From IMG/VR virus record IMGVR_UViG_2711768020_000009: 4,222 bases of DNA, one strand, 5' to 3'. The notes under the pieces are model-generated. The model was not told the DNA's origin. It ran no database searches and worked only from the letters and a program-made list of their open reading frames with translations. Position 1 is the stretch's first letter. Each line of letters starts with the position of its first letter. This stretch comes from a virus. Its lineage: Duplodnaviria > Heunggongvirae > Uroviricota > Caudoviricetes. Positions 1 through 383 of the stretch are shown here, piece after piece. The position numbers and the translations under genes are program-made.

Positions 1-196
1 TGATGAAATGGTGGAAAGCGGACAGCATCAGTAACGAAAGTATTTAGCGGGCATGAAAATGGCAAATAACGGTCAAACATCGTGGCGTTGACACAATTGC
101 GATCTTTTCCTGTGTGGTACGCCGTCTGCGTTTCTCCGGCCCTAAGACATCAATCATCTGTACTCCAATGACTAGTCTAAAAACTAGTATTAAGAC

Positions 197-216
197 TATC
201 ACTTATTTAAGTGATA
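197..216. promoter_or_regulatory. Operator-like perfect palindrome TATCACTTA-TT-TAAGTGATA (9-bp arms, 2-bp spacer) in a noncoding gap
   Basis: Read directly: bases 197-205 are the exact reverse complement of 208-216. The TATCAC half-site resembles lambdoid repressor/Cro operator half-sites. It sits next to a GACTAGTC palindrome (170-177) and a second ACTAGT (183-188). No convincing ORF covers it. Function is inferred only. Confidence 0.3.
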
Positions 217-383
217 CTGGTTGTCTGGAGATTCAGGGGGCCAGTCTACGGACATTTTCTGCCTGTGGACCAGGAAAGTGCACGGGTGCTTTCCACTCCC
301 ATGAAGCCCGGCAATCCGCGCAGATACAGTAATAAACGAACTGACAGCAGTAAGATGGAGCGTTTCTTTTGAACAACCAGACA

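Follow-up and report, generated by a model that had tools for sequence, protein, structure and literature searches.

Is the palindrome-rich interval at positions 92-383 of the window (the whole stretch of viral DNA analysed here, 4,222 nt in length) a control region belonging to the phage, or does it have another origin? An earlier note on this DNA had taken it for a gap native to the nin region of a lambdoid phage, harbouring a regulatory protein-binding site, an sRNA or a recombination site, and had pointed to an isolated TTGACA, to the motifs GACTAGTC and ACTAGT, to a perfect palindrome with TATCAC half-sites and to a GGAAAG-n10-CTTTCC inverted repeat, all of which are indeed present at the positions listed in Table 1. 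It was also right that the forward frames are closed by about position 91 (the closures lie at 32/89, 45/54 and 67), and there is no intact gene within 92-368. As read from its sequence, however, the interval is almost certainly composed of one end of an IS21, a 155-bp piece of IS2 and the tail of a cut-off phage helicase gene. We have hardly any doubt that it is the scar left by successive IS events in a replication gene of a defective lambdoid prophage, and not a native intergenic control region. None of our observations contradicts this reading; the palindrome-rich interval is ordinary, already-known biology and implies no new mechanism. The interpretation given in the earlier note is thus only partly supported, and we try below to say which part.

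The main palindrome is not an accident of composition. In 5000 shuffles of 92-383, a perfect inverted repeat with 9-bp arms occurred on average 0.007 times per shuffle and at least once in 0.5% of the shuffles, and is therefore unexpected by chance; an 8-bp perfect palindrome, found at least once in 69% of them, is not unusual. Hairpins with a 6-bp stem number five, against 0.69 expected, three of the five being sub-alignments of the 9-bp palindrome, and a single hairpin of this kind in 92-383 is unremarkable. The non-random palindrome speaks in favour of a native region of the nin/Q module (acting as operator for a DNA-binding protein of the phage, as an sRNA gene or as a site of phage recombination), and so does the fact that TATCAC is also the outer hexamer of the lambda operator half-sites. 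The operators of lambda CI and Cro are 17-bp sites with TATCAC at the ends of the half-sites, arranged in tandem. The likeness goes no further than this hexamer and the dyad symmetry, since the site described here is 20 bp long with 9-bp arms, exists in a single copy and lies within IS2, for which a specific ligand of this site has been documented.

It is homology that decides against the native region. A megablast search of window 1-720 against phage records divides this DNA into three pieces separated by sharp breakpoints (first three lines of Table 1), and the identity and boundaries of these pieces are directly supported by the alignments. The four motifs of the earlier note come from all three of these unrelated DNAs (IS21, IS2 and a helicase gene), the palindrome and the ACTAGT motifs lying within DNA that is about 98% identical to IS2.

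Table 1. Features at the left end of the window (window positions; IS2 nt, position in IS2, equal to 249 minus the window position)
Feature	Position	Strand	Remarks
3' end of IS21 (istB and terminus), megablast match	1-93		100% identity to phage records
Insertion sequence IS2, megablast match	89-248		95-99% identity to phage records
Helicase and hypothetical protein of phiP27 / Stx1-converting phages, megablast match	248-630		88% identity
3' end of IS21 istB	1-34	+	Stop codon 32-34; window 1-93 has 93/93 identity to IS21 in phage fiAA91-ss (istB annotated, matching end)
IS21 right terminal region	35-93	+	Ends ...GGCGTTGACA; TTGACA at 88-93
IS2 nt 1-155, left end of an IS2 copy interrupted by IS21	94-248	-	About 98% identity to numerous IS2 copies in records of phages and of E. 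coli
First 21 codons of IS2 insC/orfA, cut by IS21	94-157	-	ATG 157-155; Shine-Dalgarno GGAG 166-163
GACTAGTC (170-177) and ACTAGT (183-188), IS2 nt 61-79	170-188		orfA leader, between -10 and Shine-Dalgarno
P_IRL extended -10 element TGATAGTCT, IS2 nt 48-56 (putative)	193-201	-	Leftward, towards truncated insC and IS21; exact hexamer is our reading
Perfect 9-2-9 palindrome TATCACTTA-TT-TAAGTGATA, IS2 nt 33-52	197-216		TAAATAA at centre, TGAT in inner arm
IS2 left inverted repeat (IRL), 42 bp, IS2 nt 1-42, transposase-binding end	207-248	-	Length and footprint from PMC3299598
CGGAC, one copy of the 5-bp IS2 target-site duplication	249-253		Second copy seen in the S. sonnei loci
3' remnant of phage replicative DnaB-like helicase gene	249-372	+	Frame 250-372, last 40 codons plus stop (370-372)
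GGAAAG-n10-CTTTCC inverted repeat	273-294	+	Inside the helicase coding remnant
Small conserved hypothetical gene	369-626	+	85 aa from TTG 369 or 80 aa from ATG 384; rusA next, from 626

The window begins inside IS21, and the events further to the left are visible only outside it, in the Shigella sonnei loci that are 100% identical to it (see below). In phage fiAA91-ss the element has AAGA as its target duplication on either side and terminates at exactly the same CA, which places the right terminus at position 93 (although this base may be assigned to either IS21 or IS2). The 3' end of istB, followed by a right terminal inverted repeat (TIR) ending in CA and carrying a -35 box, is what one finds at a right end of IS21. 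The "isolated" TTGACA of the earlier note is the -35 box of this repeat, its function being taken from published work in which the -35 box of IS21 lies in the right TIR and the -10 box in the left TIR, a strong promoter existing only in tandem copies (PMC10122671). As in that tandem-junction promoter, the consensus hexamer stands here at the very tip of the element. The difference is that no second IS21 copy follows downstream to supply a -10, so that the box is orphaned, and that this copy has lost by deletion its left TIR, which comprises the L1/L2 repeats and the -10 box and is required for mobility, as seen in the S. sonnei loci beyond the window. No usable -10 is found in the IS2 DNA 16-18 bp downstream of the box, the candidates at 110-117 being CTGTGT, TGTGTG and GTGTGG.

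The IS2 homology stops at TAGACTGG..., which is the terminus of the element; the reference copy used for comparison (L002, from phage Ge15 grown on K-12) ends in the same manner with ...GGCCAGTCTA. This reference has an internal deletion of about 194 bp, and it served for coordinates up to nt 484 only. The left inverted repeat of IS2 (TAGACTGGCC...) is located precisely at the boundary, the minus strand reading TAGACTGGCCCCCTGAATCTCCAGACAACCAGTATCACTTAA from window position 248 to 207. At about 3 of its 155 positions the copy in the window departs from the reference (G at nt 32 and T at nt 87 are examples), none of them within the palindrome, and the same 20-mer palindrome is present in unrelated IS2 copies, namely L002 and that of E. 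coli ECSC054 (L005).

The palindrome overlaps the inner edge of the left inverted repeat, the docking site of OrfA and the extended -10 element of P_IRL. Footprinting of IS2 has indicated that, in the 42-bp IRL region, residues 39-48 (TTAA plus ATAAGT) are protected, including the OrfA repressor site TAAATAA, and that the TGAT at bp 48-51 begins a weak, OrfA-repressible extended -10 promoter, P_IRL (PMC3299598). Numbered from its own terminus, the window copy has TTAA at nt 39-42, ATAAGT at nt 43-48 and TGAT at nt 48-51, in exact agreement with the published map; TAAATAA occupies nt 40-46 (window 203-209), so that docking site and extended -10 are both present, on sequence positions, at nt 39-51. 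The palindrome at 197-216 is accordingly assigned to the OrfA/transposase-binding and P_IRL region of IS2, with a predicted function that is taken from this published work. In this respect the earlier note was right to expect a regulatory protein-binding site or a recombination site, the site being one for the repressor/transposase of IS2; it is not a phage operator, and it has no role in a nin region.

The gene start is likewise where it should be in IS2: the ATG of orfA (insC) is at IS2 nt 92, and the 21 codons that remain match the InsC annotated in L002. The GACTAGTC and ACTAGT motifs are identical in the reference copy, and we found no documented function for the ACTAGT motifs. In its identity, its footprint positions and its 5-bp target duplication, which is typical of IS2, the fragment agrees with the left end of this IS3-family element. 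It differs from a complete IS2 in being a fragment only, orfA being cut after codon 21 and the source-like genomes lacking nt 156 to about 202 through a deletion. The intact orfA-orfB pair and frameshift site of an autonomous IS2 are lacking, IS21 interrupting the element after nt 155; this is a disrupted copy and not an active IS2, and it cannot make OrfA or OrfAB.

To the right of IS2, a base-for-base alignment begins at position 249 with the uninterrupted 3' end of the helicase gene in E. coli FDAARGOS_944 (to which the DNA of this 3' end is 100% identical) and in phiP27. Of the 40 residues of the helicase tail, 34 (85%) recur at the corresponding positions of the phiP27 helicase (residues 424-463), a protein that scores 246 bits for DnaB_C (Pfam) with a domain ending at residue 422. 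The surviving residues thus all lie past the ATPase domain, and DnaB_C itself is missing from this gene remnant. The GGAAAG/CTTTCC pair belongs to this coding sequence: in its phiP27 counterpart the stems are conserved, the loop being variable, and both are read as codons (QESAR/QV/IL ST), and nothing suggests a role for the pair other than coding. The gene at 369-626, for which no Pfam family scores above its cut-off, is annotated both in phiP27 (L20) and in FDAARGOS_944, and it normally comes directly after the helicase.

The gene order is therefore that of the phiP27/Stx1-converting phage module (helicase L19, hypothetical L20, then rusA or Q), window 248-630 showing 88% identity to phiP27 and 99.8% to an E. 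coli prophage; the difference is that here the IS2 insertion has left the helicase with only its last 40 codons. In the relatives free of insertions the stop codon of the helicase overlaps the start of the next gene (E. coli FDAARGOS_944) or is separated from it by 11 bp (phiP27), and since the helicase runs directly into the next gene, the native phage has no gap at this place. The gap that the earlier note attributed to the lambdoid nin region consists of debris of mobile elements. A conserved gene spanning the interval, which the note itself had regarded as an argument against a regulatory gap, is found in part, remnants of the helicase gene and of insC filling much of it.

The phage relatives moreover lack the whole 1-248 segment, which argues against a native phage site. 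The earlier note had proposed to look for the palindrome elsewhere in the prophage, especially in the immunity region. It is a single site both in the window and in the 20-kb locus, with no second copy at up to 3 mismatches in the 20 kb around the locus and no exact half-sites elsewhere in the window, and the idea of an operator array was dropped for this reason. A lambdoid operator of the CI/Cro type, with clustered dyad sites next to a repressor gene and promoters, was likewise rejected, there being one copy only, in IS2 DNA, and no promoter-like site.

For the proposed sRNA we found no sign. An Rfam scan of the whole window (E <=1) gave no match in 92-383, a scan of 1-720 for sigma-70 promoters and intrinsic terminators detected none, and the RNA of 94-383 folds on neither strand more stably than its shuffles (z = -1.68 and 0.01), which is why the sRNA idea was abandoned. 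Neither a match to an RNA family nor a promoter and terminator surrounding a stable conserved structure, as would be expected of a phage or prophage sRNA, is present. A native control region, in any of its three forms, is already refuted by the homology, and we give it practically no chance of being correct.

The next question is whether the interval could instead harbour a real small gene. The earlier note recognised a single open reading frame in 92-383 (114-332, 72 aa); this overlooks a second one, ORF 211-372 (53 aa), whose frame from position 250 is the true reading frame of the truncated helicase gene. As for ORF 114-332, exactly this 72-aa product has been called by gene callers on 8 public contigs, which might be taken as evidence that it is a protein. 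Its composition argues otherwise: it is a chimera made of antisense insC, the IS2 IRL and then the helicase tail read out of frame, it has no Pfam match, it can exist only where this IS2 insertion exists, and every contig that has it carries the same insertion. That this ORF, or another one in the interval, is a genuine coding gene appears to us vanishingly improbable; rather, the junction misleads annotation pipelines into calling a spurious ORF.

The chimeric product nevertheless proved useful, as it was through its occurrence on those contigs that we located three complete chromosomes (L006-L008) that are 100% identical to window 1-732, one of which, CP019689, is Shigella sonnei 75/02 (PMC5447701). 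Exact-match scans of genome contigs for the IS21/IS2 and the IS2/helicase junctions had 0 hits each. Complete E. coli genomes with IS21 and IS2 ends close together (H55-H66) were also considered and set aside: they carry a full IS2 beside a truncated IS21 near afa/dra, and the junction is another one.

In the three S. sonnei loci both ends of IS2 can be inspected. The far end (IRR, TGGATTTGCC...) is preceded by ...TATAACGGAC, and the near end (IRL) is followed by CGGACATTTT, while the uninterrupted helicase gene reads ...TATAACGGACATTTTC / ...TATAACGGACATTTT. The two ends of IS2 are therefore flanked by the 5-bp duplication CGGAC, of which the window holds one copy, and the target duplication is thus directly supported. 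Beyond that far end, the helicase gene is represented by 42 bp only. IS21 is located within IS2, with the loss of 55-64 nt from its own start and of nt 156 to about 202 from IS2: its homology starts only around nt 55-64, where it joins IS2 in a shared CATGTTG. The left junction of IS21, with the original target duplication, has been deleted. In two draft contigs (L009 and L011) IS2 occupies the same site in the helicase gene and continues uninterrupted past nt 155; therefore IS2 came first and IS21 later, an order of insertions that is again directly supported.

The succession of events is as follows. IS2 transposed into the 3' part of the DnaB-like helicase gene, duplicating CGGAC and leaving the last 40 codons (250-372) beside the gene that follows. 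IS21 came to interrupt this IS2 within insC/orfA after nt 155, its right end (1-93) now abutting the left end of IS2 (94-248). Finally, a microhomology-mediated deletion at CATGTTG probably left IS21 without its left terminal repeat. The locus is a record of the disabling of a prophage, in which IS2 destroyed the helicase gene, IS21 landed in IS2 and a deletion came after. The prophage is probably cryptic and replication-dead, because its helicase gene has been destroyed.

The resulting structure occupies about 6745-10135 in these loci (L006-L008), where a left-end-deleted IS21 sits within an IS2 that keeps both ends and the CGGAC duplication, 3349 bp in total. Upstream of IS2, the 42 bp of helicase sequence give way to unrelated DNA, with an IS1 among it in one strain. 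A gene for an IpaH-type effector (LRR_TTSS plus NEL) is found nearby.

One may still ask whether this debris has been put to use, either as a hybrid promoter combining the IS21 -35 box with IS2 DNA and driving the hypothetical gene, rusA and Q, or through an antisense RNA made from P_IRL against istB. Hybrid promoters are often created by IS ends (PMC10122671), the consensus TTGACA at 88-93 does face rightwards, and P_IRL and its operator are intact in sequence. Against this, there is no acceptable -10 at 16-18 bp downstream of 88-93 and the promoter scan was empty; P_IRL is weak and repressible by OrfA (PMC3299598), and IS2 copies able to supply OrfA are abundant in these genomes; and neither a terminator nor a stable structure is there to define an RNA. 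We consider co-option of either kind very improbable, if slightly less so than a native control region or a small gene.

With the interval regarded as the scar of IS2 and IS21 insertions, some residual activity of its parts may nevertheless be imagined. OrfA from other genomic copies of IS2 could still bind the orphan operator, and any transcript from P_IRL would run leftwards through the 21-codon insC stub into IS21, antisense to istB. We see a small chance, somewhat better than that of co-option, that in Shigella sonnei either P_IRL is live, OrfA-titratable and antisense to istB, or the 3.35-kb composite of IS2 and deleted IS21 is mobilised in trans by other IS2 copies.

We think that the value of this case is mainly that of a correction. 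Wherever a prophage in an IS-rich genome, such as that of Shigella, shows a "gap" dense in palindromes, comparison with IS ends should be the first step, because such ends carry, by design, dyad-symmetric sites for transposases or repressors together with partial promoters.

The remainder of the window contains several other features. Its last 100 bases (4123-4222) are 100% identical to the end of an IS600 annotated in E. coli FDAARGOS_944; this element cuts a DUF1737 gene (ORF 3981-4169, Pfam 57 bits) and is a third IS family within 4.2 kb. Two runs of N interrupt the sequence, one at 734-1304 (571 N, where the S. sonnei loci have about 251 real bases, comprising the 3' part of rusA and the start of Q) and one at 2216-2436 (221 N, where they have about 259 real bases); the lengths of the runs differ from those of the real sequence, and coordinates across the masks therefore do not map one to one. 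Immediately after the second run, the visible 3' part of a tRNA-Arg(UCU) is found at 2437-2488 (+). The unmasked tRNAs can be seen in one of the S. sonnei chromosomes (L007, 11841-11916 and 12017-12093), where a tRNA with a CAT anticodon, annotated as tRNA-Ile in an E. coli relative, precedes tRNA-Arg(UCU); a tRNA cluster downstream of Q is usual in phages of the Stx type.

Just past the tRNAs, in AT-rich DNA, there is an ORF of 117 aa at 2599-2952 (+) with no Pfam match; in the S. sonnei loci the gene callers prefer a 43-aa DUF3927 product, located at about window 2988-3119. A 111-aa ORF on the minus strand (3400-3735) corresponds to a gene annotated as anti-adapter protein IraM in an E. coli relative; a precomputed match to the PmrD family exists for it in the S. 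sonnei loci, and our own scan had no Pfam match at E <=0.01. Finally, the only strong match in the Rfam scan of the window lies downstream of Q and the tRNA genes, at 3185-3374 (+), where the sRNA family STnc100 (RF02076) is matched over its full length (132 bits, the gathering score being 47; E = 4.6e-30).
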